DNA of 62,892 bases, the filler included, from Psammoneis japonica (Eukaryota): NCBI GenBank assembly GCA_008632985.1. It is 3 parts of 3 records of this genome, joined end to end, with 100 filler letters (N's around TTAATTAATTAA, not from the genome) between each part and the next. Parts side by side here need not be neighbours in the genome. Positions count along the whole stretch, not along the records: positions 23,917 to 48,174 come from QPGO01000430.1; 2 more parts are not named here. One strand, given 5' to 3'. A model generated the notes under the pieces. The model ran no database searches. It saw only the letters and a list, made by a program, of their open reading frames with translations, and had not been told where the DNA came from. The position numbers and the translations under genes are program-made. Below are positions 6,201 through 50,071 of the stretch, piece after piece. Position 1 is the stretch's first letter. Every line of letters starts with the position of its first letter.

Positions 6201-6225
6201 GCCACGTTTGGATGTGGGGACCCAT

Positions 6226-19169: not shown

Positions 19170-21950
19170 ATTTCTGCACCATGATGTGTGGTTTCGTGAC
19201 TCACTTTTCAGCCACTCATCACTCCTCCAACCTCCCTCCAACACGAGACAGTGAGTCGCATCTGTTGTTTTCATTTTTTCAACAGTTCTTTGCACTTTGC
19301 AGCAACTTCATTTCAGCACAGTGCAAGGATGACTGACAACAACAAGGAAAATGAAATGCCAGCATGGCTTGTGGGTTTGGCGATTGTGTCTCATGTGCAG
19401 CTGCAGTGATTGAAAATTTGGACAAGCTTTCTTGCACGGTTTCTTGAAATGAGCTTTGTTTGCAAAGCCGCACCATGCATTCAAAGCCAGCCACCTCAGT
19501 CGACAGCAATTGGCATGTCTTGGCAGCCAGGAAGGGCATGAGGACAAGCAACAGATGCTTTCACATGGCCAAATGGACCACAGTCAGAGCTGTCATTGGG
19601 TCGAGACTCGAGAGCAGAGCAGCCACTTTTGTTTAAAAAGTTGGCACATGGGCTGTTGTTTTGGCAAAAGCAGCATGGATGTGAGAGTGGCCAAGGCTCC
19701 AGCCAGCATCCTGCATGTTGTTGAGTGGCTTGGTGTGCTGACTGAGTCAGCTGTTCACAAGGCATGCAGGCCTGTTCCAGCTCCAGGTGATCAGCTTTTC
19801 ATCACGAGAGAGGCCGATTTTCTGCACAGTTTGGCACAAATGACTCCTTCAATTTTGATCGTTTTGAAAATCGAAAGGCAAGTGTACACCCAAAAACACA
19901 TGTAAAGTGTACACTTGCCCTTCGATTTGGCAAAAAATGGATTTTGAAAAAGTTAATTGCGCTAAATGCGACAATTTTTGATTGATCAGAATCGAACCTG
20001 TGTGCATCACCTGGAGCTGGAACAGGCCAGCAGCTGTGCATCAAGCACAAACAACAGCTGGCAGAAGAGTGCCAGCGGCTGGCCCAGTGGCTGGGCTGGC
20101 ACTTGCTGCATGGGCAGCAGCAGAGTCATTTTTGTTTTGGCACATCGCTGGCTCAGGAGATCCTTTTTGCACTGCTTTCATGGAGAATCACACACTGCCG
20201 CCACTGCCTGCAACATTGGCCTGGTTGGTTCATCACCTGCAAAGCAGCTGCACAAATGCTCTTTGTCCATTGCAGAGGGCAGCAATGAGGGAGCTGACTC
20301 CATTTGACAAGAAAGAGGCACTTGTTCGTCTTCCTCAGAAAAGCCATGGTCATTCCCTCTCTGCATGGAGAACTTGTTGTTGCTGTGCAAATCCTGGTGC
20401 TGTGGGCTTTGCAAACAGGATGGTGCAACCAACAACCTTCTTTCTTGCAGGAGAGACTTGGCTCCATGACTTTTTAGCTGGTGGTGGGTTGTTGATGATG
20501 TTTCTCACTCTTCACTGCTCAAATTTTCTGACACTCCAATCTGCAAAGAATGCAGAATCCAGAGCAGCAGCAGGGGCCCTGCCGCACAATGTCAAGGACA
20601 AACAAAATGATTGTCACCCTCCTCCACATCATTGTCACACAGTCTTTTTTTTTCAAAGATGCCACGCTGGCAGGTGCCTTCTCTTGTTGAAAGTGTGAGG
20701 AAATGGATGTGCCACCGGCGGTCCTGGAAAAACAAAATGGGCTGATTTGCTCACCAGGTTGTCTGTCCATTGGATGCAAAGTCTGTTGAATTTCAGCCAC
20801 TCACCAAGCACTGGAACAACAATTGAATTTTTGGAAAGACAAACACAGTGGAGTTTGAATGTCAATTTTGGTGACTTTGTCACAATGTGTGACAGGTGAA
20901 ATGCCAGTGAAGCTGTGAGGCTAAATGTCTGTCAAACAGCTGAGTCTTTCAAAGTGGAAATGACCCTTCATTCAGGTCACTGAAATTTTCATGTGTCCTT
21001 GAAACATGACTCAACAAGCAAAGCATGGCATCACAAGCTGCTTTTCACATTTTTGCCTTAAAAATTTTGACAGCGCCTTGATTTGTTTACGTGAAGAGGG
21101 CTGATGCATCAGAAGGTGTCGCACCTCAAACTTTGATCATGGTTTGGCATCATTTCAACCCACCACAGCCATGCAACACAGCAACAGCAGCATGAGCACA
21201 CAAGGCAGCTGCAACAGCACAAAATGGATTTATTTTTCAAACACTTGTGGGTGAATGGAGCAGGATGAAATGTGGTGGTTGCCATCGGACATGTCGCCGA
21301 AGGAGTGCCATTCACTGTCATTGTGTTGTGTGACTGACTTTGGGGGGGGGCAAAACAACATCAAGATGACTTTGTGTCTCCACAGTGATCACAATGCACT
21401 GTGCCACATGAACAACTTGCAATGCAATGGTGTCAACAGATCATTGATTTGTCTCTGACAAGGGCTTGGATTCGCACGCCATTGTTTTGTCTTCTTCCAC
21501 AAAACAAAGCCACCTCAGTGGCACCAAAGGTGAGTCAACGGCCAAAAATATGAACACATCTGTGCTGTCAAAAATGTTGTTTGTTCAATGATGTTGACAC
21601 CTCAACAATTGGATCGCTACAAGGTGCTCACTGCATCAAAAATGTGCCATTGTCGAAACAGCATTTTTGACTTGAAGCATTTTTGCAGAGTTCAATGTTT
21701 CAATGTCTCTATCTTTGAAGATTGTTTGCTTCCTCACCCAGAATTTGTGCTGGTGCCTGCGGCTAAAATGATTTGTTTTAACTTTTTAACTTTCCTGTTT
21801 GGCGCTTTTTCGCTTTCGGGGAGGAACAACCTCGCTGTCTGCCGTCTTTGTGCCGTCACTCTCGGCGGGGGAAAAGCACGAGAGGGCTGAATCGGTGTGC
21901 ATCGTGCGGTCGTGCGCGATGCACGTGATTGATGATGCGATTCCCCTTTC
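19170..21950. other. TpA-depleted domain 3
   Basis: Same signature; the right edge (21790-21950) is CpG-rich yet TA-free. Confidence 0.8.
19769..20028. mobile_element. MITE family C (260 bp)
   Basis: Perfect 23-bp TIR GGCCTGTTCCAGCTCCAGGTGAT / ATCACCTGGAGCTGGAACAGGCC; flanks TGCA and AGCA; internal 22-bp inverted repeat at 19868-19928. Confidence 0.9.
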
Positions 21951-30192: not shown

Positions 30193-31946
30193 CTAGAGAA
30201 GACCAGACTCGAGAATAGCCAGCTTGAACGAAGAGGAAAAGACGTCGTCTGAGAATCGATTGGCAGACTGTCTCGCTCGTTTTCGTATTGCAGTGGCCCC
30301 AGCAATGTCCAGAACTAAAGCATTGTACATGGCGCTCGCATATTCTTCCTTTGTAGTAGCTAGAAAGCCTGTAGGTTTGCCGTCCAACGGCACAATAATA
30401 TCGGCAGCAGGACCGCCTGATTTGTGAGCAACAACCAACAAGCCCGCCGCCATCATTTCCACAACGCCAATTCCAAAATGCTCATTCCACATTGTATGTA
30501 GTCCAACACTAGCTCGACCGTACCACTCTTTTACAACAGAGTATGGCTGGTTGAGAACAAACTCTATCGAATCAACAAGGCCAAGAGTCTGGACAAGTCG
30601 TTTCAGATCTTCCACTCTCTCTCTATCCTCGCTTCCGCGACAACTGCCAATAAGTACCAACTTGGCATCCTCCATATTCGGATATTGCTGTTGCATTTCT
30701 GCAAACGCCATGATTTGTAATGTGTGGTCCTTTTCCGGACGAAACTGGCCTATGCTCACAATTGCCTTTTCACGAGCTCCCTCGACAGGCAGATCTTGAC
30801 AACTCTTCACGTCACAGGGTGGATATACAATGCGTATTCTCCGAGCGGCCCCTCGCCACAAGAACTGAATGTGCTCAAATGTCCACGACGAGTTTACCAT
30901 GACAAGTCTAGCCATGCTACCGCATACCCCGTACAAAAAGGCGAAAAAGACATAGTATACCAACTTGATGCTCGTTCTGACAATGCTTCCGGCAAGACGC
31001 GGGTCGTTATTGTATGATGGTCGTCGTTCCCACACCAGCGACAGCATATCCTTGCAGTAAAAGAAACGAAAAAGGCATCAGTATTGATTTGAGAAGAAGG
31101 TGAAGCTGAAATCCGCAAGGCAAACACAAGCCGCATGAACTTTGCAGAATAAGACTAACGCACCGTACTTATTGTTGGGTAGTGAACGTAAGCACAGACA
31201 TGGCATCCTGCTAGTAATCTAGCTACAGGATAGGTAAAGGCGCACCCAGTAGTGTCAATAAAGATATCCGGTGTCCATGCGTCAAGTGCTTTGAACGCAA
31301 GCACAATTGTACCCCAAGCTTCGACCAACAGCGAAAGAAAGCTTGAAGGTGCTGAAGTAACAAGAAAAGGTGAGCATGCATAAGAAAACAGAAAAGATCG
31401 AATGGCATATAATATGCATGTGTCTTACATAAACAGTCGGAATGTTTGTCGAGATGAACAAAGGAGATTGGAGTAGATATCGGAAGATCGATGGAGAATC
31501 GTCTCTTCACTTCTTGGAGTAGGTCTGAGATCAGGTAAAAAAAGAACCAATTAGTTTAAGATCAAAAAAGACAAGTTTCATAGTAGAGATTGTTGCTTTG
31601 TTACATGCACTTTCGTCAGCATACAGACAGTACCTTGCGTGTAAGTGTCGGAGGGAGCATCGATAGTATACACAACCACATGCAGACGAAATCCATCTTG
31701 TTTTATACCTGCCAATACTTCGATTGCTTTCCATAGCACTCGCTCTCCACCACCTCCTCCAGAACATCGAGGATGAAAGAACGCAACAATCTTATCGCTT
31801 GAATTACATTCTTGCTCGAGGCGATGCTTCTTGAGTCTTTGTCGGCGAAACTTTATCCGGCAAAACACAAAGAAGACGGATAAAGCCAAGACCGCAGTCA
31901 ACACACATACTTTTAACGCCATCAGAAATGCTGATGACATTGACAT
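30193..31946 (-). CDS. ALG11: GDP-Man:Man3GlcNAc2-PP-Dol alpha-1,2-mannosyltransferase, multi-exon
   Basis: AFFHPRCSGGGGGERVLW, SIGQFRPEKDH, GLHTMWNEHFGIGVVEMMAAG and HKSGGP. Confidence 0.95.
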
Positions 31947-33441
31947 GACAAAGAATTGAGATTGACGCGGTAGGGCCCTCTCTAGCTAGTAGCAGCTAGC
32001 TACTTCTATTCTAGAAGTACAGTGCTGTACTCGAGAGCCGGTAGTGAAAAGTGACGCCATTGCCGCCCGCACGCACTGGCATCAAGCGGGTCCGCGACGG
32101 CCGACGGGGGACACACGCGAATCGATCCTCGCAACGGCGCACTGCGCTGCGCACGCTGCCATGGGTGGGGACGCCGTAGAAATCACGTGGGAGCTGTTTT
32201 TTTAGAAAAATTAACCTCGTTGCCCAAATGGACCATGGCGGTCGTCATCGTCGTGACAAAAAAAAGTGTCATCATCACGATTCGTAAGACTCAACGTGCG
32301 TTCACAACGCGCAAGTCCGAGCTTCCATCTCCCACCACAGCCTTCGCCAAGCGACGACCAAATCAACCTGCTGTTTCTCACCAAATCGCTTTCGCGCCCT
32401 CAGGATCATCACAAAAAGTTGCACTTTTGACACCATCATGTCCGCCGTCATCGAATTGGGTGGGGTGCACTGAAGCACAACTTTTGACTGCAATCTCATC
32501 GAGTGATTTTGAAATGTTTGCGGATGTCCACGCAACTCGTTTGAACAACATGCCGTCATCCAAATGGCACTTTCATGAGGCAGAACTGAGACGCCTGATT
32601 GGAACAAAGTCAAAGGATGGCACCTGTCTGCATGCATGCAAGCAGGAAATCCACTCACTGTGTTGCAAAAGGGACATTTTCACAACATCAGGAAGGGCGC
32701 GCACGGACCACAGGGTCTCCCTTGTTGGATCCACTCCGCACAAAGCACTCAACAGAAGAATTGCTCTAAGACTCATTGCTTCAATCATGGATGCCCAGAG
32801 GGTTTCAAAACGAGTCATCTGCAAGAGGATGTCACTGTCTCAAGAGTGCCAAGATGCTTTGCGATCGGGTGTGACATGGAGAGTGGATGGATGCAACTCT
32901 TCTGATTCAACAGAATGGCAATGACAGGAAGTGCAAGCGACCCCACTTTCATTCCAGAATTTCAACAAAGGCAAGTCTCTGACAGCGCAGTCATTGAAAC
33001 AAATGTTGTGCTCTTTTGTCACTTGTTTGCATCACCTTTTCACAGTTGTGTTTCACAGGCACATGCGAGTGCTGCGGTGGGAACCGATCTTGTCGGCTTG
33101 GCTTTGTGATGCCAAAAGGCATGATTGATTCTCTGTTTGTCGCAGAGACATGTCGCTTCTGCAAAGACACTGAAGAGCCCTTTTCTTTTCTTTCTTTTTG
33201 TTGCAAGCTCGTTGACGACAACAATGTCTTTGTGCACAATCGTTCAGATCGTTGCATTGGCAAATGCATCGCTGTTGCATGGGACAAGAGTTTGCTGTCA
33301 AGGGCACTCCAACCAAACAACAAACCCTGTTGACTGAGGATCAACCACACTTCAAGCCGAAGCCACCGTGTTGCAGGAGTTGAGTCATGCCTTCAGCGGC
33401 ACTTTGTGTTTTGCAGCAGCTGCAATGTGCAGCCACCAATG

Positions 33442-33869
33442 AGAGTCAATGCATCACGGCGACGTGTTGCAGCCTTTAAATGTCACAAAGGGCGTGACAA
33501 AAATGACCTTTTGTCTGCATGCATGCTGCACCATGAATTCACAGCGGAGTGGTTCATCTTGCAACCACTGGGCAGGAGGCCAGGGGTTCGAAACCCTGAG
33601 TGGGAGTTGTCTGCAGCAACGTTGATCACTGTCGAACGCGCAAAACTCTGTGCAGTTCTGCATGTTCCTTCGTGCGCACCCACGCTGTTCCGCCAAAACC
33701 GTGCAGTGTCAGCACACGTTGGTGAAGAGCCGCATGGACGCGTGACACATGGGGAGGAGTGCAACACACAGCTGCCAACAAGAGCCAATGCATCACGGCG
33801 ACGTGTTGCAGCCTTTAAATGTCACAAAGGGCGTGACAAAAATGACCTTTTGTCTGCATGCATGCTGCA
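33442..33869 (+). mobile_element. tRNA-derived (Pol III A/B-box) element with about 88-bp direct repeats, copy 2
   Basis: Direct repeats 33442-33529 and 33781-33869; A-box-like CAGCGGAGTGG at 33542; B-box GGTTCGAAACC at 33585 within a CAGGG/CCCTG T-arm. Confidence 0.78.
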
Positions 33870-34004
33870 CAGCAAACCCAGTGTTCTCATTTGGTGATTG
33901 CAGTGGGAACACGTCTGGCTGTGCCTGCTGTCTTTTGTCGGCAATGTGCGAAACAATGGCAGCACTGACTCTCACCCCTCCCTTGAATGACAGTTTGCCC
34001 ACAG

Positions 34005-34690
34005 TTCACGGAGATTTTGCATGGTGGTGACCTTCTTGATCCGATCGTGTCCAAAGGCAAGAACTCTGAAGCTGAAAGCCGCCGAGTCTTGAGACGGTTT
34101 CTCGGTGCTGTTCAATGTCTTGGCGAGGACCGCCAGGTCCTTCACAGTGAGTTGAAGCCAGAAAACATTCCAATGATCGACTGCAATTCTGACGTGGCAT
34201 TGGCATCAAGCTGACAGACTGTGGAGATTGACCAAAAAGGACTGGGGCCTCCTGAAGACCTTTTGTGGAATGCCACTGTGCTTTGCACCCAAAGTGTTGC
34301 AATGCCATCACACGGTTGCTGGGTGAGGAAGTGTGGAAAAAAGGCTGACATGTTTTTGTTGGGAGTCATTCTCCACATCTGCTGAGCAGCATTCCTCCTT
34401 TTGACGGTGACACTGCTGGAGCCGCCAAAGGTCAAGTGACGTTTGTGCCAGATGCCTTTGCCAATGTTTCGGAGGCGGCCAAGGATTTGGCAATTGGGTG
34501 GCTTCGGCCGGACCCAAAGGACCTGTCAGTGGTGCAAGAAGCGCGTCAGCACGAGTGGATGTCGATCGACAATGGAGATGTGCATGTTCATCCTCTGGAT
34601 GATCCCGTTTTGGCCAACTCCCAAGACGATGAGATTGACACAAAGGGACGGAGGACAATGAAACGACTCGCATCGGTTTGCAAACAGAAG
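34005..34690 (+). pseudogene. Decayed CAMK/Chk2-like Ser/Thr kinase fragment
   Basis: GGDLLDPIVSKG, VLHSELKPENI, IKLTDCG, KTFCGMPLCFAPKVL, GKKADMFLLGVILHI, VSEAAKDL and HEW, with frameshifts and stops. Confidence 0.85.
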
Positions 34691-36711
34691 AGGAATCAGA
34701 AAATGTGGACATTCATGAAACTTTAGAAGAGGACTCCACGGTGACAAGCAGAAGGATGCAAACGCGAGAACAGAGGAGACAACAAGTGAACGTGACGTTG
34801 TGAGAGAGGCGAACTGGATCGTTGCTCCAAGGGTGACGGGGAATTCCAAACATAGAAAAGACAAGCAGAAAGAACAAAAAAGGTGGATTTCTTTACACTT
34901 GTAAAAATGTGACCTCAATTTCACCACGAAAACGGCGTGCATTTGTGCTCAGTTGATTTTTACATGGTGAAGTGCAGCAAAATCGAGAAAAGTGCCATTT
35001 CACGTTCTCTCCAACCACGTGGTCAGGTGACTTGGTAGATGCATTGTAAGAGAGAGAGCTTGCACTTTTGATGTCGGTCACCACTGGCATCTTTAAAGCC
35101 ACAACAACATTCCAAAACTACAAACGAGTCAACGTGTGAAAAACTCGAATTTTTCAGTTGTGATTGCACGGCAAAGTGCGGGAAGTCACTTCATTGCTCT
35201 CAATCTTGACAAATGCAAGGCCAATGAAAAAGTTGCACCCCGTTCCAAGCACCTCTGAACACCCTCTGTCGAACAAGGCAACTCTCGTTTTGATCCGAAA
35301 AAATTCGTTTCTGCATGTTTTCTGTGGCGGCCTCTCCCATGGCTGCACTGTGAATGCAACGCAACGCTTGAAAATGGGCTGGGGCATTTTGCGGCAATCG
35401 TCCAGCCACGCAGGCAGCTCCACAGAAATCGTGCAGGAAATGTGCTGGAGTTTGTGTAGATTCCTGTGACGACACAATTCCATTTCTGTGATGACAAGCA
35501 GAAATGCACGGCATTTCTGGCGCACATTGCATGACGACACGAAACAGGGAATCCTCATGATTCCCTCCATGACCCACGAGCAATGAACCATCAGTGGCTG
35601 CTTCTCCAGAGCAGAGAGAGCTCTCTTCTGGCTGGGTGGAGAGCAGAGAGCTGGCTGTTGCTCTCAAACAGAGAGCAGAGACTCTGCTCTAGAGAATGGA
35701 GAGAGGAGCAGGCAGAGTTCTGCAGCGACTGCCACATTTCTTTCGCACTTGACGCACGCAGAAAAATCGACACTGTTTCCCATTTTACATTTTTGTTGCA
35801 CACACTAGAGCACCGGTGGCTGGGCGACAGGTGACACCACTCGGGACTGGGCGTTTTTGCTCCCACTGTTGGGCCCCAGAGACATGTCAACACCATCGAC
35901 GATGCAAGTGTGATCTTCTTTCTTTCTCACTTGCTTGCTTGCTCTCTCCCCTTTTCCAGAGCAGAAATCGCAAGCAAGACCAATGGTTTCAAGGCTGGTG
36001 CATTTGTGGAATGATGAAAGAAAGTGAGCGGGCACCAAACGGAGGTGGAGTTGCCTGAAGCAAGCACCGGCAGCACCTGGGTTCTTGAAGAGTGCAGCAG
36101 TGGCGGCAAACATGACACGGCATTCATCGGGGTGCCTCTCATTTTGCTCTGATGGAAGGAGTTAGAGCTGCCACTTCTTGCAACAATCTGGGGGCTCCAT
36201 GATCTTCAATCTGCAAAGCACAAACCAAAATTAAAACAAGCAAGTTGTGAGAACCCGAGTCTGAATGCAACAAAATCACAGGAAGGAGCGTTCAGCCAAT
36301 TTTGGATTTTCTCTTGCCTCTCTTTTCATGGACACACTCATCAGAGAAAAACACAACATGTCGCACAATGGCATTTTTGGTGGGAAAGGTTAAGCGGCTA
36401 AACAGAGCATTGGTTGTTGCTGCGCAAGTTGTGAGAATAGAGTCAGACAATGGCAGCAAAATCACAGAAGGATTTCTCATCCATTTTTGGGTTTTCTCTC
36501 ACCTCTCTTTTCATTGACACACTCATCAGACAAAAGATTGGAATCTTGTGCAGTTGCATCTTTTGCAGGAACAGCTTTGTTGAAGAAATTGTGCAGCGGC
36601 TGTTGCTGCCACCATGGTTGCTTTTTGAGATGTGTCAAGTCCTGCCGGGTGGGTGGGCCAGGGACACAAACATCCAGTGAGACGGGATGTGACACGCGGT
36701 GCAAAAAAAAT

Positions 36712-38105
36712 GGGCCCTTTGCATTGATTTTAAGGTTTGTCCACATGTCGGCAGATGAGTGAACATGTGATGTTAAAAATTGACACGGGCGGTCCCTTTG
36801 ACAGGCCAAAAGTGAGGGAATGCTGAGTCTCAAGGCACGCACACCTGACACCAACATGATGCCACATTGCCGTTGTTGCGCTGTTTTCTCCTTCGTGATT
36901 CCGCTGTTGCTCTCCCTCGTGGTCACATGCCGACACATTCATTTCTCTGTTGGCTTGCCACCAGTGAATGAATTTTGCAAATGCCATTTTGCTTCCTCTT
37001 GCTCTTCCATTTTGTTGCTTCTTGTGGTGTGTGAGCATTTGCTGAATGCATCTCGTCGTGTTGCTGCATTTCATTGCATTGGGTGCGTCAAATTTTGCCA
37101 TGCCCCTCATTGTGATCGTCTTCCTTTTTCTCTTTTCAGTGGCTCATTGAAGCTTGTGCGTAAGCAACTCATGTGAAGGTGACTAAATCGACAACGCAAC
37201 TCAGTTCCTTCAGAAATGCCGTGTCGTGAAAAAGCAAATCCGAGCGACTTTCAGTTTCTGTCACAGGAGCAGCACTCACAACATGCATCGGCTCCAAAGC
37301 AAGAGGGTTTGCATCTGGCGACTCTTTCATTTGTTGCCACACCCCACACAGCGCATTTCTAATTTTTTGGCTCCATTTCTTCTCCTTGGGCTTGGCATCC
37401 CGCGTCTGTGGCAAATGGCAGTTTCCGTCTGCAGGCACTTAGATTGGCAATGGTGACAACATGTTGCACATCTGGCACCTCTTTGTTGCAGTGCCCCATC
37501 TGACATTTTGGCTCCATTTCTTCACCAAAGCAAGTTGTCCTTTGTTGAAGAAGTGATCTTCCGTGCAGCCACATTTTTCCAATGCGGAGCCCTCGAATGC
37601 TGGAGAAGAGACCTCGACATCAGACTGATTGGGGTGCAGTGCTGGCATGAACTTGGGTCCATTGTGAAGATTCAAAACCGCTCTTGCATGGGAAAAGGAC
37701 AAAATTTAATTCCAATGTCATGGGCTCTGCCATTTCTCATCCTTCTTGCTGTGCCAGAGGTTGTTTCGAGCTGCTTTGCACTCGTGAGCTGTGCAGCTCC
37801 ACACTTCCGTCCAAATTTTTACCTTGCTCTTCAAGGACGCTCTTGAACAGACTCAGCAGTTCTCCACAGATGCAGGTTAAATGATCAGACATGGTCAATG
37901 CAGTTGGTTGGGCAAGAAGTGCTTGTCTTTTCTCTTGCACGATGTGCGCTTGTGTTGGCGCCGCCGCGTCTGGCGCGTGTTGTTTGATTTTTTGTTTTCC
38001 CTCACTTTTGGCCTGTCAAAGGGATTGCCCGTGTCAATTTTTAACATTTGATTTTTGTTTGTGTGCGCATGTTGGATGAACCTTAAAATCAACGCGAAGG
38101 GCACA
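36712..38105. mobile_element. About 1.4-kb non-autonomous DNA transposon with about 110-bp TIRs
   Basis: 36712-36820 is the reverse complement of 37997-38105 (shared TGTTAAAAATTGACACGGGC and CCCTTTGACAGGCCAAAAGTGAGGGAA); no clear TSD or transposase. Confidence 0.8.
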
Positions 38106-40504
38106 AGATCCCTGTGGCCGCCATGTGGGCATGTGCACATCGCATCTGACTGGACATTTGTGTCCCTGAGGCAGGCCTGCAGCTCGACATTCTTCTGGTC
38201 GTCGCATGCGCGCTTTGAGCTTGCAGCCTCTCTCTCTCCCCCTCCTCCTTTTCCTCTTCCTTTTTTCACAAACTTGGAGCCACCTGCGTGACCGGACACA
38301 TGCCCATTTTACTTTTTCGTCTCCACTTTGCCATGACAATGCAGATCCTTGAGTGCCCAAGTTGCTGGGCTGCATTTCAAGTTTTTTGGATCATGAAAAA
38401 TTTGGACATGGTTTGGATTTCTGGCACTGGTTGGTTTCTTGCCCTCTCCCAGCCAGCTGACAAAAAGAAAAACTCTCCAAAACACGGGGGGAGGGGACGC
38501 ATCCCGCCCTTTGGTTGGTTTGCAGCCAACAATGCAGGAAGCAGAGCAGCCCCTGATGCACTGAAGGACAAAGCTCAGAAGCATGTCTCATGTTGCATGT
38601 CTGATGACATGGAGAGAGCTGGCCAAGTTCAAAGCAGCCTTGGCCAACTTTGAGCCTTTTTCATCAGAGGGAGGCACCCAAGGTTTGCCCCCAGAGCTGA
38701 CCCCAAGCATTGGGCAGCAAATGTTGAGACCAAAAGCTCTTCCACACACAAGCAACATCACTGCCCTCACCTTCATGTGACTTCAACAGCTTTTCAGTTC
38801 ATCAGCAGCACGGCTTCTCACTCCTCAGACCCTCTGTTCTTTTGGATGCAAAAAAGCCTCAGACCATGGGTCAGCTTGTGTGTGGCATGTGCACGGCACA
38901 ATGAGCCAAGCCCAAGCAATGTGGTCCCCTGTGCTTTGCTGTCTGACCAGCAAGAATCTCATTGTGCAAGCACAGCTGGAAAGTTTGTGCAATGTCAGTC
39001 TTTTTTTGAACAGCCCTCCATTCAGATGTTGTGCACGCGGGGGTCATTTGGGAGTCTTGGAACTTCAAAAAGTGCTGGAAGCTTCTCCCTGGGTCCTTTT
39101 CCTTTGCAGAGCTTGTGCTGGATGGAGTCAACACACACTCAAAATTTGATTCAAAAATCAATCCAACAGTTGTGAACAACCATCCAATTGTCTCATCTTG
39201 CTTCTGCAACATTCCTTTTCCAATCAGACTCTTAGCTTGGCATGCCTTTTCACCACCGTTGCTGCCAATGCTGGCAAAATGCATCCCGCTCCAGTGCGTC
39301 TGCAACAAGTCAATTGAGCCAGCTGTCACAAGCCACCATTTTTGTTTCCCAAGAACAGCAAATTGCTCGTCAGTTGTCCATTTCTGCTGCCAAGAAAGAT
39401 GAGGCAGCAAATCCCAGCACTGGCTTTAATGCAGATGACAGCCCACCCAGTTTCCCACCTGTGGAAGACCTGGAGCTTTTTCCTGCACCCGACAAAGAAG
39501 CAGAGGAGGAGGATGAACGTGACAACAACTCCTCTTGTTTTGCGCAAAATGTTCCCCAGCACTCTTGCTGCTGTGTCTTTGTCCTCTCCTTGGCATGAGA
39601 CATCTGAAGAATCCACCCTGCCCCTGGATCCACCCACTGTCCCTCCCATCACTGCTGACTCGGACCCCTTGCACTGGGGCGCACCTGATCCACCAACCTT
39701 TTCACTTGCGGAGGAAGCTTTGCCAGAGCTGATCATGCCACGTGACAATTCCGGTGCCACTTGTCAATTTTGCAGTTGGCTCTTGCTCACCCTGTTGCAA
39801 CAATTTTGCAAGAAGCGGAAACTTGATTGTTCCTGGTGTTTTGGGTGGGACTTGTTGGTGAAGAAACTCTGCAAGAAGGTTTTCCTGCCCCAGCCCAACA
39901 CTCGCATCATTGGTGATCAGGAAGTCACTTGCTTCTGCATGCTGGACATGCATGTTGAGAGATTTGTGCCTGCTTGATGTTTGACAAGGAGCAAAATCTC
40001 AACGTGAACAAGTCCATCCAGGCACATTTCCGCAAATTCATTCCTGTTGACTGGACGCTTCTCAACAGGAACAACTGAAGAAAGCTGGAATGTCCCTCCC
40101 ATGTTCTTGAATTGCTCAAGAAGTGAAAACTTTGTCTCCCATTGATTTTCCAATGAGTGCCCCACACAACTCCAGCCTCCTCAAGTCATTCTTCTCTGAC
40201 AATGTCAAGCTCACTGACCTCACATTTTTTTGTTGCTTGGACAACCATGATCCAAGGGCAAAGCCATCCTTGACACATCCAAAAGGAACATCACAATTGC
40301 CTTCCCTCCCTGAGTGAGCTGAGAGCACATTGCAAGCACGACTCCATCTGCCCTGGTTTGCACTCCACTCAACACCAGCCATTGCTGCACTGCAAACCTT
40401 GGGCAGCTGGTGCATTGTGAGAGAATGCTCCAGTGGCTGGCAGAGTCAAAAGGTTGCCCAGCAGTTCACTGGCTCATTCTTTTGCAATGAACGTTGACAC
40501 AAGA

Positions 40505-41720
40505 TGATGCCAAGATGCAGCATCGCTCCTTGCAAAAGACACTCAATGCTGTGTCTTGTAGCGGACTCTGCTTTTTGGCAAAAGGTTGTGAGCAGGGATT
40601 CAGTGTGGGGGCTGTGCACTCCCAAAGAATGACGGAGCTGCTCCAACCTTGAACTCATCACAAAGACCTGGCGTGCGGACCCAAGGTTGATGTGCAAGAG
40701 GCAAAAGTGGCCCTCAAGGAAATGGTCCAGGCTCAAAGTCAAGGAAGCTCTCTGTGGAACATGGGCATGGGACAGAACATCATGAACGCAAGGTCACACA
40801 GGGATGTTGGAAACATGCATGGACCATTTGAATGCAACGAACCCAGGCATTGGCAGACTTGTGCATGGGCTTCAGCTCAAGGACAATCGTGCCTCTGGTC
40901 TGGAGTGGGGGTCAACAACCTGCAACAACTGCAGCTTTTGACATTTTTTGTTGCAGCGCGATTCTGCAATGTCTCAAGAATTGCGTGGGGCAGGCACTTT
41001 TAAAAAAAGGTTGAGCAGCAAGAGGCACAATTGCACCACAAACTTGGCCATTTGCTTGATGTTGAAGACAAACATGTCCACCAATTAATTTCTTGCACTG
41101 CGGAGCTCACACGCAGAATTCTGTGGGCCCAATGTCGCGTGAAGTCCCGCCTGGGGCTGGAGAACGCATCTGCCAAGATGCGTTGTCACTCCTTGCAAAA
41201 GATGCTCAATGCTTGCACTGCGGAGCTCACACACAGAATTCTTTGGGCCCAATGTCGCACGAAGTCCCGCCTGGGGCTGGAGAACGCGTCTGCCAAGATG
41301 CGTTGTCACTCCTTGCAAAAGATGCTCAATGCTGTGTCTTGCAGTGGACTCTCTGCTTTTTGGCAAAGGGTTGTGAGCAGGGATTCAGTGTGGGCTGTGC
41401 ACTCCCAAAAAATGATGGAACTGCTCCAACCTTGAACTCATCACAAAGACCTGGTGCATGCAGACCCAAGGTTGATGTGCAAGAGGCAAAAATGGTGCTC
41501 AATCAAGGAAATGGTCCAGGCTCAAAGTCAAGGAAGCTCCTCTCTGTGGAACGTGGGCATGGGACAGAACATCATGAACGCAAGGTCGCACAGGGATGTT
41601 GGAAACACGCGCGGACCATTTGAGTGCAATGAACCCAAGCATTGGCAGACTTGCGCGTGGGTTTCAGCTCAAGGATGAGCACGCCTCTAGTCTAGAGTGG
41701 GGGTCAACAACCTGCAGTCA
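40505..41720. repeat. Direct duplication (about 40505-40920 and 41291-41720) around a truncated MITE-A fragment with a 120-bp internal duplication
   Basis: Matching ORF text KEMVQAQSQGSS..WN.GMGQNIMNARSHRDVGN in both arms; CTGGGGCTGGAGAACGC at about 41151 and 41271. Confidence 0.8.
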
Positions 41721-41784
41721 GCGGTGTTGACAAAATCATCTTGCAGACTGACAAGAGCATGCGCCCCCTTCAGCACAACAGCAT

Positions 41785-42402
41785 GTTGTCTTCAACTTTG
41801 ACTGTTGGACAGTGTGGTCTCCTGTTGAGTCTCTTGCAGTGACTGGCGGAGCCAAAGATCTGAATCCAACAAAGCAGCAGCAACACCCACGATGCCAAAG
41901 AACACTGTCCAGCTGCAAAGAGCAAACACGCATGCTTTGTTTCAAAGTGGCTGTTTTCATTTTCAAGAACAGAAACACCACGGGACCAAGATGTCTTCAA
42001 CTTTGACTGTTGGACAGTGTGGTCTCCTGTTGAGTCTCTTGCAGCAATTGGTGGAACCGAAGATCTGAATCTGACAAAACAGCAGCAACACCCACGACGC
42101 CAAAGAACATTGTCCAACTGCAAAGAGCAAACATGCATGCTTTGTTTCAAAGTGACTTTTTTCATTTTCAAGAACAGAAACACCGTGGGACCAAGATGTC
42201 TTCAACTTTGACTGTTGGACAGTGTGGTCTCCTGTTGAGTCTCTTGCAGTGATTGGCAGAACCAAAGATCTGAATCTGACAAAACAGCAGCAACACCCAC
42301 GACGCCAAAGAACGTTGTCCAGCTGCAAAGAGCAAACATGCACGCTTTGTTTCAAAGTGACTGTCTTCATTTTCAAGAACAGAAACACCATGGGACCAAG
42401 AT
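41785..42402. repeat. 205-bp tandem repeat, 3 copies
   Basis: TTCAACTTTGACTGTTGGACAGTGTGGTCTCC at 41791, 41996 and 42201. Confidence 0.92.
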
Positions 42403-43052
42403 GACCCCCAATTGCAGAGACTGCTTTTTAGTGAAAACAATGCCGAGACCCAGCAGCTGCTCTTTTTGGCCATTCTCCAACTTTCCTGCCTTGTCCCAAG
42501 CTTGCTTTTGATTGTTCAACCAAGCTCCAAGTCTCTTTCCAATGTCAACGTGAGGATGAGGCACTTTTCAATTTCCCTCGTGCACCGCAAATTGTCCAAG
42601 ATGAGAAAACACAATCTCCCGTTGATTTTCCAACAAGTCTCACTCCATTCCAGCCTTCTTCAGTCGTTTCTGTCAAGAGGCGTCCAGCTTGCCCTTCCTT
42701 TTGGCTGTCCTTCACTTGACTGGCCAACTTCCAAGGTTCTCCCCATTCCCCATCCTCTTTGTGATGCCTTGGCAGGTTGCAATGGTGTCCCTCCCATTTC
42801 TTGAATTGCTTCAGAAGAGAGAACATTGTGCCCCATTGATTTTCCAACATGCCCCACTCAACTCCAGCCTCCTTGAGTTTTTCTTCTTTAAAGTGTCAAG
42901 CTTGCCAAGCTTGTGCTCTCGTCATCATTGGTCATCCAACCAAATTCCAAGGGCAAAGCCATCCTCAATGCATTTGTTGGGAACATTGCAATTGCCTTCT
43001 CTCTCCAAGCAAACAAGAGTGGGCTGCAAGCACGACTTCATTTGTCATCGCA

Positions 43053-43442
43053 GACGCGTTCCAGCTCTAGGTGGGACCTCGCACTGCTGAACTGTGACAT
43101 CGATAGTTTTTTGGATCGCACCGTATGTCGCGCACGTAGAAAGGTACGTGACTTTTGTGAAATTTTGTATCATTTTGTGGTGCACTTATTGAGCGATCCG
43201 TCCAACAACTTTTGACATTTATTTCTTCTACGCCATTCTTAAATGTCTTAAGAATGGCGTAGGGCAGGCGCATTTGCAAAAACGTCAAGTGGCAATGGTC
43301 ATAATTGCACCACAAACTTGGTCGTTCATTTGATGTTGAAGACAAAAATGTCCATCAATTAGATTCTCGTAATGCGGAGCTCGCACGTAGAATTCTACGG
43401 GCCCGATGTCACAAAAAGTCCCACCCAGGACTGGAACCCGTC
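43053..43442 (+). mobile_element. MITE family A, young copy (390 bp, TSD CGCA)
   Basis: TIR GACGCGTTCCAG..GGTGGGAC / GTCCCACC..CTGGAACCCGTC; CGCA at 43049-43052 and 43443-43446; removing it restores the host frame WSVCDDK. Confidence 0.92.
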
Positions 43443-44558
43443 CGCACACGCTCCACATGACACCAGCCTTTTTGAGCTTTTGTTTGAGAGAAATGTCCAG
43501 CACCCCACTCTTTTTGGCCTGTCTTTGTCTGTTCAGCCAATTCCCCAAGTTCACCCCTCCATCAAGAACGTGGCCATGACAAATGTCGCAACTCCCTTTG
43601 TGGTCTGCAGTGCAAGAGCAAACCACATGTGCGATCCCAGGAACTCTTGTCCTTGCATTCTCTGACTGCCCCACCCACATGATGACATCCCTCATTTCAA
43701 AAGACACCAAATCAGGAAGCACAAAGGAATCGAGGACACGAGGAGGGAACTCTTCACCCTTCAAAGGCCTGTGTTTGGGCAAAATGCATTTCGATGGACT
43801 GGCGGCATCGGAGTTGTTTTCATTCAGGGCTGGAACACACGTGTCAGGGTGTGCAACTGGGCCAGCCAAGCCGTCGTGTGTGAGTTGTTGAAGGGCAAGG
43901 TTTGGAGTTGGCTCCAGCAGATGCCATCTCACTTCACAATTTTGGCCAGTCCTTTCATTCTTTAAAACAGAAACACCACCAAGAACCAGCAGATTCCTGC
44001 ATTGCAGAGACTGCTTTCTAGCAAAAACAGCGCCAAGATCCAGCAGTTGACTCTTCTGGCTGTTCTTCAGTTTTCCAGCCTTCCATGCTTGCTTTTGATC
44101 TTTCAACTAAAGCTCGAGTCTCGCTCCATTTTCAATGTGATGAAAAGGCACTTTGCAGCTGCCTTCGCACACCACAAACTGCTCGAGAAGAGAAAACACA
44201 GTCTCCCACTGCTCAGCCCAAATGCCCCACTTAACTCCAGCCTTCTCCAATCGTTCCTGTCTAGAAGCACTCAGTTTCCCTTTCCTTTTGTCTGTCTGTT
44301 GCCTGTTCAGCCACACTCCAAGATTCACCCCATCCTCTTTGTGACCCTGCAGCACCCTGCAATGGCCCTCACACACCACAAACTGTTTGAGAAGAGAAAA
44401 CACAGTCTCCCATCTCTCAGCACAAATGTCCCACTCAACTCCAGCCTGCTCCAGTTGTTTCTGTCAAGAAGCGCGCAGTTTCCCTTTCCTTTCATTTTTC
44501 CTTTGCATGCCCAACCATCTTCCAAGGTTCTCCCCATCCTCTTTGTGACCCTGCAGCA

Positions 44559-44954
44559 GACGCGTTCCAGACGCAGGTGGGAATCCGTGTGACATTGGGC
44601 CCGTAGACTTCTACGTGCGAGCTCCGTAGTAAAATTATACGGTAATTAAAATGTCAATGATCGCCAACAGAAAATGAGGCAATTTTGCGAACGCACAAAC
44701 TCGCACATGATTGAAGTACATCATTTTTTACTCAGCCAGTTACATTCTTCAGACATTGAAGAATGTAACTGGCGCATTATTGTTTCTATAAATTTGTTAT
44801 ATAAAACGTCTGGGGCTTCGCAAAACAGCGAGTCTGGACAATTTTTTTTAAATGTCACACGTAGAAATCTACGTACGAAACATACGACGGATGATAAAAA
44901 TTATTGTTGTCACACGTCAGCACTACGAGCTCCAACCTAGGGCTGGAACGCGTC
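44559..44954 (+). mobile_element. MITE family B, young copy (396 bp, TSD AGCA)
   Basis: Perfect 12-bp termini GACGCGTTCCAG / CTGGAACGCGTC; AGCA at 44555-44558 and 44955-44958; the empty site matches the paralogous HA unit at 44341-44370. Confidence 0.93.
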
Positions 44955-47103
44955 AGCACCCCACAATGGCCCTCATGTGCCGCAAATTGTTCAAGACAAG
45001 AAAACACAGTCTCCCATTGATTTGCCCACAAGCCCCACTCATCTCCAGCCTCCTTGATTTTTTTCTTTGTCAATGTCAAGCTTGCCAAGCTTGTGTTTTT
45101 GCCATTGGTTGTCCAACCAAATTCCAAGGGCAAAGCCATTCTCAGCGCATTTCTTGGGAACACTGCAGTTGCCCCCTCTCTCCAAGCAACCAAGAGCATG
45201 CTGCAAGCACGACTCCATTTGTCATCGTTCACACTCCACTCAACTCCTGCCTTCTTGAGCACTTGTTGACAAAAAACATCCAGCACCCCACTCTTTTTGG
45301 CCCACTGTTGTCTGCCCAACCAATGCTCCAAATTCACCCCCTCCTCTTTGTGGCCATGGCGAACTTTGCAACTCCCTTCGCAGTCTCCATGCACCAAGAG
45401 CAAATCGTTCATGCAATCCCAGGAACTCTTGTCTTTGCATTCTCTGATTGCCCCACGCATGATGCCATTTGTCGTTTCCAATGGCATCGAAACGGGAAGT
45501 GTGAAGGAATCGAGAACACAAGGAGGGTGCTCGCATTCCTCCAAAGGCCTTCCCAATCTGTTGCTCTCTTCAATCACAAACAAGACATCCTCGCACAATT
45601 TGGGATCTGGACCAACCATGGCCTCAAAAGCAAGAGCAAAACTTTCACGTCCATTGACATCCTCAGACAATGATTCTTTGTCAGAAGAAGCTGGAGCAGG
45701 AACAAGAACACAACCACAGTTTTTGTCACAGTCCCTTTCTGGCTCACACATCCAATCATTTGACATGCAAGGACTGAACTCCGAATGGGATCAGCCATCA
45801 CAGCCAACTCTCAATCTGCCTTGTCAACACCTGCAGCCAGTGATTTGCAGTTTGCAATGACAGATTTGGGTGCAGACTTTGCTCTCAACAAAACCTTTTC
45901 CCATTTTGCAACAGACATTTTTGGGCTGCCGCTGACAGGAAATGTGGCAATGTCATCCTTCAAAAGGAGTCAAGAGGAGTCTGCAAACGCCTGTGCCTGG
46001 GAATTTGCAGAGTGAGGCGAGACTGCATGACTCACATTGAGTTTGTGAAAAGCTGCTTGAATGGCAAAAGGCACCAGGGGACACATTGAAAGATTGTTTG
46101 AATCGACGGGCGTGCAGTCACAGATTTTGCCTCAATCTGGAACGCACAGCATGACAGGAACCACAATGTTGCACTCCGCACTTTCCTGCAGCATCTTCCT
46201 CTTGATGCGCGGCCCAAACAATGGCTCATCATTGAAGCTCCAAACAGCTGCAGCTTTGTGAGCCGCAGCATTGTCACCCCTTTTTGGCAACAGAGTTTGT
46301 GCTCCAAACTTGTCAAGCTTGGATCCCAACACGGCAACTTGCTTTGGAGATTTGGTGCATCAACGAGGGGTGGCCGCAAGAAAAAGTCGACAGTCAATGG
46401 GAAGGACGCCATTGCAGGGACCGCAACCAAACAAATTGCCAGCACCTTCCATCTCGTGTGCTTCATCAAAGATGCCAAACCTGATGCTGCCACCCAGCTT
46501 GTTTGAAGCCTTGCCAACCTTGGGCAACAAGTTGCATGTGCAGCTGACAAACTGCAACTTGTCATCATTGGAAGAAAGAAATGCTGCAATCTCATCGACA
46601 GATGTTGTGCATGCCTCGGATTGACTGGCTTGGCTCGCCACAATCAATCTCAAGTGAGGCACATTGTCAAATGCTCTGGATGAATCCAAGACTCCCAGCA
46701 TCTGATCCACAAGTGCAAGCTTTGGTGTTGCATGAGTTGCCGCTTGCACCCCTTTGAGTCACAATCTTGCAAGCGTTTTGAGGCTCAGCAATGTTTTGCC
46801 CCATTCCGGGGGAAGCTGAACATTGGCTTGGCAATGTTTCTTGTCTTCAGATGATTTCAGCATGCCAACCACACCTCCATTTGAATTGCTCCCTCTCCCT
46901 GCGGAGGATTTGTTGTCCTCTCCACAGCAGTGACTTGCAAGAGAGTCAATGACATCATTGTGTTGACCACCGCAATCTTGACAGCAGCAGCTTTCTTGAT
47001 TTTCTGCATGTGACGCTTTGATCTCTGAAGAACCTGTTTTTGTTCTTTGATCAATCTTGCTGGCAACAGTTCTGTGATCTTGTTGCAGATGCTCAATCCC
47101 AGA

Positions 47104-48174
47104 GACGCACTCCAGGTGCAGGTGGCAATCCGTGTGACATTGGGCCCGCAGAATTCTGCTTGCAAGCTCCGCAGTGAAATCATCAGGCAAGTGACACGTC
47201 AATGATCGCCAACAGAAAATGATGCAATTTTGCAAATGCACAAACTCGTCTGTGGTTGAAGCACATCATTTTCTGCTTGGCCAGTTGCGCTCTTCAGACA
47301 TTGAAGAATGCACCTGGCTTGTTTGTGTTCCCATGATTTCATCAAATGAGATGTCAGGGGATGCGTTCCAGGTCTGGGTGGGACCTCGCGCCACTGAACT
47401 GTGACATCGACAGTTTTTTGAATCTCATCGTATGTCGCGCATGCAGAATTCTATGTGATTTTTTGACATTTTGTGTCATTTTACGGCACACTTGTTGAGC
47501 GCTCCGTCCAAAAACTTTTGACATTTTTTGTTGCAGCGCGATTCTACAATGTCTTGAGAATCGCGCAGGGCAGGTGCATTTGCAAAAACGTCGAGTGGCA
47601 AGAGGCACAATTGCACCACAAACTCAGCAGTTCATTTGATGTTGAAGACAAACACATCCATCAATTAAATTCTTGCACTGCGGAGCTCGCACGCAGAATT
47701 CCACGGGCCCAATGTCACACGGAGTCCCACCTGGGGCTGGAACGCGTGTCAGGGGTTTCGCAAAACAGCGAGTCTGGAACAATTTTTTGAAATGTCACAT
47801 GTGGAAATGTGCACACAAAACATGCAACGGATGACAAAAAACAACTGTGTCACACGTCAGTGCTGCGAGCTCCCACCGACGGGTTCCAGTCCCAGGCGGG
47901 GCTTTTTTTGTGACATTTGCCCCGCAGAATTCCACGTGCGAGCTCTGCAGCTCGCACTCTGGTCAACAGATGTGCTCATCTTTGACACAAAACAAACGGC
48001 CAAGTTTGTTGCACACACATCTCTGTTCGTACTTGCAGTTTTGGACAGTGCGCCTGCCCTGCGCCATTCTCGAGTGTCTCGAGAATGGCGCAGAAGAAAA
48101 AAATGTCAAAAGTTGTTGAATGGATCGCCTGACAATTGCGCTGCAAAATGATGCAAAATTTCACCAAATTCATG
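47104..48174. mobile_element. Nested MITE cluster: old B copy (47104-47359 plus 47751-47877) with A copies at 47360-47750 and 47878 to the gap (reverse)
   Basis: Colinear with the 44559 and 43053 copies; AGGG flanks both sides of the 47360 insertion. Confidence 0.85.
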
Positions 48175-48274
48175 NNNNNNNNNNNNNNNNNNNNNNNNNN
48201 NNNNNNNNNNNNNNNNNNTTAATTAATTAANNNNNNNNNNNNNNNNNNNNNNNNNNNNNNNNNNNNNNNNNNNN

Positions 48275-49906
48275 GGCAGTCTCCCTCTCGGCCGATGGAG
48301 CAGGAGTGAACGAGACGGTCGTAGTCACTGGAGTCGAACTCAAAGAGTCGTCCACAGGTGCACACCACATGCCGCAATAAACCAGCTCGTTAGGGTCAGA
48401 GGGTTCGTCTGTAGGCGGAGACGTCGTCTGCTCGGGAGGACCAAAAGGAATGCCCGAAGAGGGGTCCGACACAGCAGATAAATTTGCCGCAGCGGTGGTT
48501 TCGGTGTTGACAGACGGTTTCCCGGTGTGTTGAGCGGAGGAGTGGCCTTGACACATGCCCTTCTTGCCCGTTTCCTTGTTCACACACTTGTCGCACCAGT
48601 GCCAGGTCGTGCCTTTCTCGTCGGTGACAGTGGCACCTTTGTGAACGAAACGCCAGGCCGGCTTGGGTGGTTTCTTGGAAGGGTCAGTCTTCCGGACATC
48701 CGGAGGGTCATCCTTGGACTTGTCCGCCGTGCCCTTTTTGTCCTTCTTGCATTGCTCCTTGCAGGTGGGACACGTGCGTTTGGTGTGCCCAACCTTGCCA
48801 CAGCCGCAGCAATGCTTTTCCGAGTTGTCCTTGGCGAGGTTGGATTCCGGGAGCTTGGCTGCTAAGGCAGGCCAATCTTCATCGCTAATGAGTTCGCCAT
48901 GGGTCTTGGTGATCCAGCCAATGAGGCCAACAGGTCCAAGATCCGCACAGTCGGCATCCTTGGGGACTTCTGCCGGGTCACGCAAGCGACATTTGCGCTC
49001 CAAGCGCTTGACGGAGTCGAGCTTGGCAAAAACTTGACGATTGAAAAACTCGGAGGATGTCTTTGACACCTTAGATAAAACAGCAGACCCAGTTTCAACT
49101 GGCAACGCACAGTCCGTCTGCATGATCTTGAGCAGGCGCAGAGCTTCGGTTGCAAGCTCGGTGCAGTCTTCGCCAGGGCAGTTGTCCAGAGTTAAGTCGT
49201 TCAACTTTTCCTTGGCGGCCTTGACGTCAACCAGAGCACTGGCGTTGCAGGTGTCCAGAGCCATCATAAATGAGACAGACCCCGGAAGATCCTTGCAGTT
49301 CTTCAAGTGATTAAACTTGGTTTCAATCTTTTCACGGAAGGTTTCGGTGATGCGCGACTTGACGATGAGTTGTGACAAGCCGATGTCATCGATTTCATGC
49401 TGATCGTAGCCTTCGTCACCTGCAGCCGCCACACGGGTCTCACATTCCTTCTCAAGGTCTTTGACAGTGAAGGCGTGAAGATGATCAAAAAGGTGCACGA
49501 CCTTGCCGTCGACTTTCTTGAGATGGTAGAAAGTTTCTTGTCCGTGCGACTCGATTGAGTCCTGAATGGTCTTGACGAAGTGGTCTTTGTCCAGTTCAGC
49601 ACTGGAACCGTTGGACAACTCAATCTGGCCGTTGAACTTGGATGTGGTTGCCGAAGCGAGTTGATCTCTGAGAGATCGCTCGACAGAGTCGACAGCTTTC
49701 GGATGGCGACGTTGCGAGGCAAAACGGCAGGTGCGGGTGTCGGTCTGCTCGCACTTGTTGTTCAGAGCCGAACCACCCAGATGCACTCCATGAGAGTGGT
49801 GGATGCCGCCGCGAAGCGGCGTGGGGATCGTAGGAGGGTTGGTCGAGGTTTGCATCTTGGCGAAGGCCTCAGCAAACATCTTGACGGTGTCAGGATCCAT
49901 GGACAT
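48275..49906 (-). mobile_element. Ty1/Copia-type (diatom CoDi-like) gag ORF, truncated by gap
   Basis: CCHC knuckle CCGCGKVGHTKRTC; second motif WHWCDKC...HSSAQH; upstream LTR/PBS-like region. pol is not visible, so the superfamily is inferred. Confidence 0.75.
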
Positions 49907-50071
49907 GGTTGTGGATGATTCGACACAGAGGATCGATTAGCAGGTGGGGATTGCGACATAGATGATCGCCGTTGGATTGCGACATAGAAGATCGCCGTTG
50001 GATGGGATGTCGTCTGTAACGAGACGAACGAGTGGCAGCAACTCCGTTGCGAGTTGATGCCGGTGCGTGGA

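Follow-up and report, generated by a model that had tools for sequence, protein, structure and literature searches.

Loss of conserved tyrosine codons in a kinase gene relic of Psammoneis japonica points to mutation directed at TpA

Repeat-induced point mutation (RIP) converts C to T at CpA, creating TpA. The hypermutation caused by APOBEC3 (G>A) and ADAR (A>G), whose substrates are single-stranded DNA or RNA, is partial and strand-biased; the A edited by ADAR and ADAT-type enzymes preferably has a U/T on its 5′ side. A process directed at TpA itself has been described in a preprint on the alga Bigelowiella natans (10.64898/2026.01.13.699255). In mutation-accumulation lines of B. natans, 231 of 302 nuclear mutations fell in two integrated viral regions, and 230 of these 231 were A>G or T>C changes, without exception at TpA; the rate was ~1000-fold that of the background, and only in some of the lines (10.64898/2026.01.13.699255). 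These two regions, single-copy and virus-derived, keep many TpA (3.3% and 9.2% of dinucleotides), 124 TpA-depleted clusters with many unannotated open reading frames (ORFs) are spread over ~95 Mb, ordinary eukaryotic domains are encoded by some of the TpA-depleted coding sequences, and Mettrop et al. propose an ADAT2-like adenine deaminase (10.64898/2026.01.13.699255). Here we describe the relic of a protein kinase gene in a 62,892-nt stretch of DNA from Psammoneis japonica (assembly GCA_008632985.1), hereafter referred to as the window, along which all positions are counted. The conserved tyrosine codons of the relic and a repeat family of the same window make it very probable that a TpA-directed A:T>G:C process acted on the kinase copy after the death of the gene.

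The signature is that measured in the B. natans lines, from which it differs in degree, extent and substrate, and probably in lineage. As in B. natans, TpA turns into TpG and CpA only, on both strands, and depletion of TpA is accompanied by a gain of CpA and TpG. Unlike in B. natans, where the changes were measured in lines, here they are read from sequence alone, the purge is near-complete and it extends over ~45% of the window; unlike the viral targets of B. natans, the substrate is repeat-rich DNA with a cellular-type kinase copy in it. With RIP of Neurospora and other fungi the window shares context-specific transitions, sharp-bordered blocks, wrecked repeats and killed gene copies, but TpA is destroyed here and CpA/TpG are made, so that the resulting composition is opposite. 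Fungal RIP was rejected as a candidate on these grounds, the purged blocks having observed/expected (o/e) ratios of 0.0-0.15 for TA and 1.3-2.5 for TG and CA. The duplication dependence of RIP also sets it apart from the window, in which a sulfatase gene pair with 83.5% identity is untouched. Hypermutation by APOBEC3/ADAR likewise leaves selfish or foreign sequences densely strewn with context-biased transitions; unlike that pattern, the one found here involves both strands, only TpA, and an essentially complete loss. The relic itself, unlike the Chk2/Rad53/Cds1-type FHA-kinases of diatoms, is broken, catalytically dead and without a detectable FHA domain. Searches of full-text literature yielded no account of TpA-directed hypermutation besides the B. 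natans preprint, and none for diatoms. The words kinase, pseudogene and diatom have 0 occurrences each in the available part of that preprint (10.64898/2026.01.13.699255). The accessible portion of a paper on diatom DNMT4 relates this protein to fungal RID and gives no mutation signature (PMC9998398), and that of a further paper contains nothing on TpA (PMC5124317).

A preliminary description of this DNA had read two peptides, KTFCGMPLCFAPKVL and GVILHI, as altered CAMK kinase motifs. Both are encoded exactly as claimed, at 34255..34299 (+) and 34362..34379 (+), respectively. An alignment of the relic with 133 homologues was used as a stand-in for the ancestor; its consensus over the first motif is KTFCGTPQYFAPEVL. 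The Cys column of PLCFAP (relic codon TGC) is Tyr in 133/133 homologues, and the His column of GVILHI (relic codon CAC at 34374-34376) has Tyr in 104 homologues and Phe in the other 29. None of the homologues has Cys or His at these columns, which bears out the claim that Tyr is ancestral there. The Met column of CGMP (ATG) is Thr in 132/133 homologues and the Lys column of APK (AAA after C) is Glu in 133/133. The proposed single-step paths TAC>TGC, TAC>CAC, ACG>ATG and, after C, GAA>AAA thus agree with the codons of the relic.

The comparison was extended to all conserved columns, defined as those with the same residue in at least 75% of homologues (90% at a stricter cut). Every one of the five conserved Tyr columns was found changed (to Cys three times, to His and to Asn), against 26 of the 107 other conserved columns (Fisher one-sided p = 0.0013); at the 90% cut the numbers are 4/4 and 24/88 (p = 0.007). 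The five columns are at 34062-34064 (AAC, Asn), 34116-34118 (TGT), 34279-34281 (TGC), 34332-34334 (TGT) and 34374-34376 (CAC), all on the plus strand. Four of the five losses are accounted for by TA>TG or TA>CA. Not a single Tyr is present in the 205 residues of the relic, whereas the 133 homologues average 6.8 and have at least 5 each, and Arg is down to 7 from a homologue mean of 16.2. Since any conserved Tyr codon was necessarily TAY, these columns started out with TA, which is not the product of two CpG deaminations. On the sense strand of the relic, the three Tyr>Cys replacements are A>G, those of Tyr>His and Leu>Pro are T>C, and TG and CA are both in excess.

Over 34005-34726 (722 nt) one TA remains, in the terminal TAG, where 43.9 are expected from base composition and 27-33 from the density of 38-45 TA per kb in three intact genes of the window (sulfatase, ALG11, WD40). 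The same interval contains 30 CG (45.7 expected), 78 TG (49.6 expected) and 56 CA (40.3 expected). CpG decay had been proposed alongside the loss of TA. It is borne out in part, by seven CpG transitions at conserved residues, a CGA>TGA stop and the reduced number of Arg, yet CG still stands at 0.66 of expectation, and CpG decay in the relic is much less advanced than the loss of TA. As at most 1 in ~27 TA survives compared to replacement of 24% of conserved codons, a rough estimate places the rate of change at TA at least 10x above background and several times above that of CpG.

Polarity was also assessed at the DNA level in a repeat family of the window. The unpurged copy at 43040..43450 (+), which has 17 TA and 27 CG, was taken as reference for four purged copies (47350-47760, 5420-5810(-), 40925-41300 and 47870-48174(-)) with 1-5 TA each. 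Where the unpurged copy has its 17 TA, the purged ones read CA 24, TG 16 and TA 5 times, with 10 other readings. Both TG and CA were seen among the copies at 10 of the 17 sites and only two sites were uniform; the simplest account of such independent outcomes at one site is that TA is ancestral. Since the unpurged copy has kept its 27 CG, its TAs are not products of double CpG decay. Relative to this copy, the A>G rate is 0.38 after T and 0.09-0.22 after A, C or G (0.09 after A), and the T>C rate is 0.47 before A and 0.03-0.18 otherwise. The process is TpA-specific and acts on both strands. Conserved Tyr losses and the repeat family give the same polarity, in agreement with the proposal that TA was the starting state.

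The window is eukaryotic nuclear DNA, in which genes alternate with blocks nearly devoid of TA. Its overall o/e ratios are 0.33 for TA, 0.68 for CG, 1.45 for TG, 1.44 for CA, 1.22 for AA and 0.86 for AT. A TA map made in 500-nt steps along the whole window is bimodal, with 15-39 TA per 500 nt in gene blocks and 0-6 in purged blocks, which cover 501-8000, 12001-16500, 19001-21500, 32300-43000, 43501-44500 and 45001-48000; the near-complete purge extends over ~45% of the 63-kb window. In most purged blocks CG is at an o/e of 0.0-0.6. The block that holds the kinase relic (32290..43000, no strand assigned) has 0-5 TA per 500 nt throughout. Borders are abrupt: a normal density of TA until 32285 is followed by 4 TA over 32286-34724 (2.4 kb), and the relic sits in the most completely purged stretch of the window. 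Duplication alone brings no purge, as shown by a palindrome at 8581-18981, whose outer sulfatase arms, 83.5% identical, share 55 TA and are unpurged. Its inner, non-genic arms (12863-13684 / 14684-15567, 76% identical) have one shared TA, and silence or lack of selection thus seems to matter for the purge. The inner arms differ by 24 TG/CA swaps, compared to 0-3 for three control double-difference dinucleotide pairs; these swaps fit the TpA model but are ambiguous, since an ancestral CG would give the same swap.

The proposed course of events is as follows. The kinase copy would have been freed from selection, whereupon a TpA-specific transition process would have turned TpA into TpG or, when it acted on the opposite strand, into CpA. 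TA would in this way have been removed from the copy, including all conserved Tyr codons, at a per-site rate at least an order of magnitude above that of ordinary decay and also above that of CpG decay.

The stretch 33279-34723 (+) is most likely a dead copy of a cellular, diatom-type FHA-CAMK (Chk2/Rad53-like) kinase gene. Its kinase C-lobe and conserved tail (34005..34723, +) were aligned with homologues as five in-frame segments, 34005-34196, 34205-34225, 34228-34326, 34329-34379 and 34382-34723. The C-lobe becomes recognizable at 34005, and the C-lobe, activation segment and post-kinase tail motif align with relatives over ~205 residues; homology stops near 34630 and the frame stays open until the TAG at 34724. 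The segments are separated by four frameshifts on the plus strand: 8 nt in place of a single codon of the relatives at 34197..34204, 2 additional nt at 34226-34227, and codons 1 nt short at 34327-34328 and 34380-34381. An in-frame TGA at 34324..34326 (+) replaces a residue that is mostly Arg in relatives (54/133), the one-step path being CGA>TGA. The catalytic HRD reads HSE (34143..34151, +; R and D each 133/133 in homologues), DFG reads DCG (34217-34225, +; F 133/133) and APE reads APK (34285-34293, +; E 133/133). With its catalytic motifs altered and its frame broken, the stretch is a relic of the kinase family and not a working member. We also noted T/G transversions at invariant residues (34353, 34457, 34220 and 34499), which are unexplained: Trp>Phe by TGG>TTT twice, Phe>Cys by TTT>TGT and Leu>Trp by TTG>TGG.

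Upstream, two pieces of the N-lobe are left. The beta-3 'AVK' region at 33279..33323 (+), in a frame different from that of the next piece, is weak by itself (E 0.62) in hmmsearch with a profile built from 94 homologue N-terminal parts. The alpha-C helix TTLQAEATVLQELSHAF at 33344..33394 (+), in which the conserved HPY reads HAF, is found with E 2.5e-4 and by tblastn alignments. The two are collinear on the profile, at 317-331 and then 343-359. Between the N-lobe and the C-lobe a repeat is inserted at 33395..33912 (no strand assigned), a further lesion of the pseudogene besides the four frameshifts and the TGA. This repeat is itself TA-purged, contains an internal 111-nt direct repeat (33421-33531 / 33760-33870) and has an inverted copy, 93% identical, at 6226-6622 (-). 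Other contigs of DNA run X1 skip it and join 33393 straight to 33913. An A-rich stretch lies near 34850-34885, ~130-160 nt past the stop of the relic.

Family assignment was based on several searches. The open piece 33987-34214 matches Pfam Pkinase (PF00069) at profile positions 77-134 with E 2.3e-5 and 24.4 bits, a score below the gathering score of 31.7 bits. A phmmer search with the 75-aa product of this piece against 1.84 billion representative proteins gave 417 matches at E <= 0.001, the best at 3.6e-15, and tblastn with relatives outlined a single gene in shifting frames from 34008 to ~34630. The read-through, in which the five segments are joined with X at the breaks, gave a best blastp E of 9e-63 (202 bits; 49.8% identity over 209 aa to a protein labelled P0158) and matched many proteins at 48-50% identity across 200-210 residues and 184-202 bits. 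An FHA domain ahead of Pkinase was present in 5 of the 8 relatives tested; FHA combined with a CAMK kinase is the Chk2/Rad53 architecture. Eight relatives had legibly named source organisms, and all 8 are diatom proteins (Thalassiosira three times, Skeletonema, Chaetoceros, Attheya, Fistulifera and Mayamaea), the one from Skeletonema marinoi being annotated as 'FHA domain-containing CAMK family serine/threonine-protein kinase'. In a phylogenetic tree the relic falls within a 141-leaf clade (support 0.989) together with all 8 named diatom sequences. Its branch length is 1.10 compared to a median of 0.24 (4.7x), and its 3-leaf group is sister to the other 135 leaves of a 138-leaf sub-clade with support of 0.61, a placement that could be due to long-branch attraction.

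No parent kinase was found. Protein searches with two open pieces of the relic yielded none; among the best 150 of the 417 representative proteins, the top identity over the read-through was ~50%. A search with residues 440-670 of another relative, P0005, had 5186 matches at E <= 1e-20 among 8000 scored candidates, and none of the best 120 was closer to the relic than ~50%. Metagenome contigs contributed three loci and no parent (two with 38% identity over residues 1-59, one with 63% over 19 residues). A 934-nt contig of run X2 matches only 34 nt of the relic (34347-34380), and its loose ends resemble a homologous kinase with TA-bearing codons; this contig is a possible lead to an intact relative. 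None of the sequencing runs listed as containing the relic was an RNA run.

The kinase stretch exists in the genome in several diverged copies. It is matched at 84-92% identity by three or more further contigs of run X1, some with internal deletions; at 34231, where Thr is encoded in the window, every one of them retains the ancestral Ala codon. The repeated unit outruns the gene, as contigs with joints and deletions still match at 35300 and beyond. The copy in the window, one of several and split by a high-copy element, lies within ~10.7 kb of purged repeat-rich DNA. Among 80 giant-virus or viral contig loci the best match was 33% identical (97 bits), far from the 48-50% and 184-202 bits of cellular proteins. 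Capsid, reverse transcriptase, integrase and transposase domains were not found in 142 window ORFs of >=110 aa, nor in 72 ORFs of 62-109 aa from 32-43 kb. The preliminary description had held that copies of host genes are affected and not only transposable elements. The cellular type of the kinase agrees with the first half of this view; targeting of a duplicate is inseparable from a regional effect or carriage by a mobile element, and targeting of a host-gene duplicate as such appears only partly shown.

Intact-looking genes of the window include those for ALG11 mannosyltransferase (with introns), a ZIP transporter, WD40 proteins, cytochrome c, two sulfatases, an Ulp1 protease and methyltransferases. 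Protein atlas matches for an ALG11 exon were prokaryotic GT4 clusters only, and PDB matches of the cytochrome c ORF were uninformative as to taxon. The window has no match to the dinoflagellate spliced-leader motif, to Rfam or to tRNA. A half-depleted zone at 48001-51500 (TA o/e 0.1-0.48) may be an intermediate stage of the purge; an open ORF for a 412-aa Ulp1/C48 protease (50813-52048, +), partly within this zone, has 19 TA per kb, compared to 38-45 in the sulfatase, ALG11 and WD40 genes. Two islands of ~0.35-0.4 kb each, 43068-43396 and 44604-44938, have normal TA density within purged DNA, the first having purged homologues elsewhere in the window. Their escape, as young insertions or through protection, is unexplained. 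The excess of TG and CA is uneven, and its sign switches along 501-8000 (TG 2.15/CA 1.27 at 4501-5000; the reverse, TG 1.64/CA 2.5, at 501-1000), which hints at a local strand bias of the process.

The window contains 168 stop-to-stop ORFs of >=110 aa. Many long, overlapping stop-free frames occur on both strands of the purged blocks because TAA and TAG are gone there. A Pfam scan of 142 of the 168 ORFs gave no match in purged DNA apart from decayed repeats of the helicase-associated (HA, PF03457) domain at 40119-45790 (-), the best of which is 44110-44463 (E 2e-22). Repeats of the HA domain are abundant in diatoms, and those of the window could serve as a second protein-level marker of polarity. 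Together with the named relatives of the kinase and with long intron-free ORFs, which contrast with B. natans, they make a diatom lineage of this DNA likely.

Several observations weigh against the proposed history of the relic. Minimal paths, which assume the nearest ancestral codon and present-day neighbouring bases, give 36 nucleotide changes at 31 replaced conserved residues: 6 TA>TG or TA>CA, 1 transversion at TA, 7 CpG transitions, 6 other transitions and 16 other transversions. Thus, 16 of 36 changes are transversions outside TA and CG, one conserved Tyr was itself lost by a T>A transversion, and ordinary decay of the relic must have been substantial, as so many changes are outside TA/CG. 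The claim that changes are concentrated at TA and CG stands per site but not by count, where such transitions make up 13 of 36. The parent gene was not found, and the 133 homologues used to deduce ancestral codons share only 48-50% identity with the relic. Pfam on ORFs, tblastn and a homologue profile all failed to reveal an FHA domain over 31900-34020; the upstream FHA may have decayed or be absent. The known targets of hypermutation in B. natans are integrated viruses and not gene copies (10.64898/2026.01.13.699255), a fact that also favours a foreign origin of the copy. Finally, the very high copy number of the repeat at 33395-33912 is judged from a summed contig depth of 40,000-164,000, compared to 27-68 for single contigs, and summed depth is not equal to copy number.

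Transversions and non-context transitions together are 22 of the 36 changes, as would suit ordinary neutral decay with CpG deamination, the loss of Tyr and TA being due to chance or composition. We regard this as highly improbable given the changes at conserved Tyr (5/5 against 26/107, p = 0.0013), the 1 TA in place of 43.9 while CG is still 30 of 45.7, homologues that never have fewer than 5 Tyr in the region, and a TA map that is bimodal with sharp borders. Even less credible is a sequencing or assembly artefact. The window does contain six N runs and the best DNA run may consist of the very reads behind the assembly, but contigs of run X1 reproduce 33846-34147, 34680-34850 and 34945-35114 without difference, other diverged copies exist, and frameshifts, stop and transversions are those of long-term decay. 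The C-lobe continuous over 720 nt and the A-rich stretch beyond the stop would be expected of a retrocopy reverse transcribed from RNA hyper-edited (A to I) by an ADAR-like enzyme, and ADAR favours a 5′ U according to the discussion in the available text of the preprint (10.64898/2026.01.13.699255). Such an origin is nevertheless very unlikely: A>G and T>C are both present on the sense strand, non-genic flanks and the inserted repeat are equally purged, AA is not depleted (o/e 1.22) with A>G after A at only 0.09, and TA loss is more complete than partial editing would give. ADAR-type editing fixed in a retrocopy was rejected also as a known system, the pattern being other than one-strand, partial A>G.

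Two further explanations are taken more seriously, although each of them is rather unlikely. In one, the kinase copy arrived on a virus or mobile element and the process targets foreign or mobile DNA, so that the relic would be silent on host duplicates. The multi-copy stretch with its repeated unit extending to and beyond 35300, the position of the relic among repeats and its splitting by a very high-copy element fit this account, as does the intact-looking, 83.5%-identical sulfatase gene pair that is unpurged. The grouping of the relic with cellular FHA-CAMK of diatom type, the distance to viral loci (33%, 97 bits) and the ORFs scanned, which have no capsid, reverse transcriptase, integrase or transposase domain, argue against it. 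The other dispenses with a deaminase and invokes a bias in silent DNA, by mispairing of a modified T at TpA or by over-correction of G:T mismatches to G:C, to about the same low degree of belief. A G:T repair bias is known to deplete a TA-containing word in enterobacteria. Consistent with a bias of this kind, the loss is restricted to a palindromic dinucleotide, both strands being affected, and goes together with depletion of CpG, as is usual for methylated DNA that is silent; moreover, in the palindrome the non-genic inner arms are purged and the genic arms are not. Unit-wise targeting is, however, better suited to the two ~0.4-kb islands of normal TA within purged DNA, and some B. natans lines show the process, with tens of sites hit per line, while others do not, a difference that the authors ascribe to regulated activity (10.64898/2026.01.13.699255). 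We tentatively favour enzymatic deamination of adenine in DNA at TpA, by a putative deaminase aimed at silent, repeated or foreign DNA, though with less than even confidence. More doubtful still, but conceivable, is a RIP-like defence of opposite chemistry, in which adenine deamination at TpA would be triggered by silencing or repetition rather than viral origin and would erase TA in silent duplicates, those of cellular genes included.

The relic is an ordinary dead gene, and its value is that of a marker for a process first described in another alga. As an outgroup-based proof of direction, its Tyr codons cannot come from CpG decay, and the same signature has been carried to completion over ~45% of 63 kb. 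If general in diatoms, the process would shape the composition of repeats, create long false ORFs through the disappearance of TAA and TAG, and hide transposons and viral insertions from homology searches, as illustrated by the lack of a recognizable element domain in purged DNA; it would also bear on the control of duplicated or foreign DNA. If a RIP-like defence is indeed at work, near half of some chromosome regions would be purged and growth of gene families would be limited as in Neurospora. Together with B. natans, such a system would then be present in two lineages of the SAR (stramenopile, alveolate and rhizarian) group, suggesting an old and widespread eukaryotic defence.

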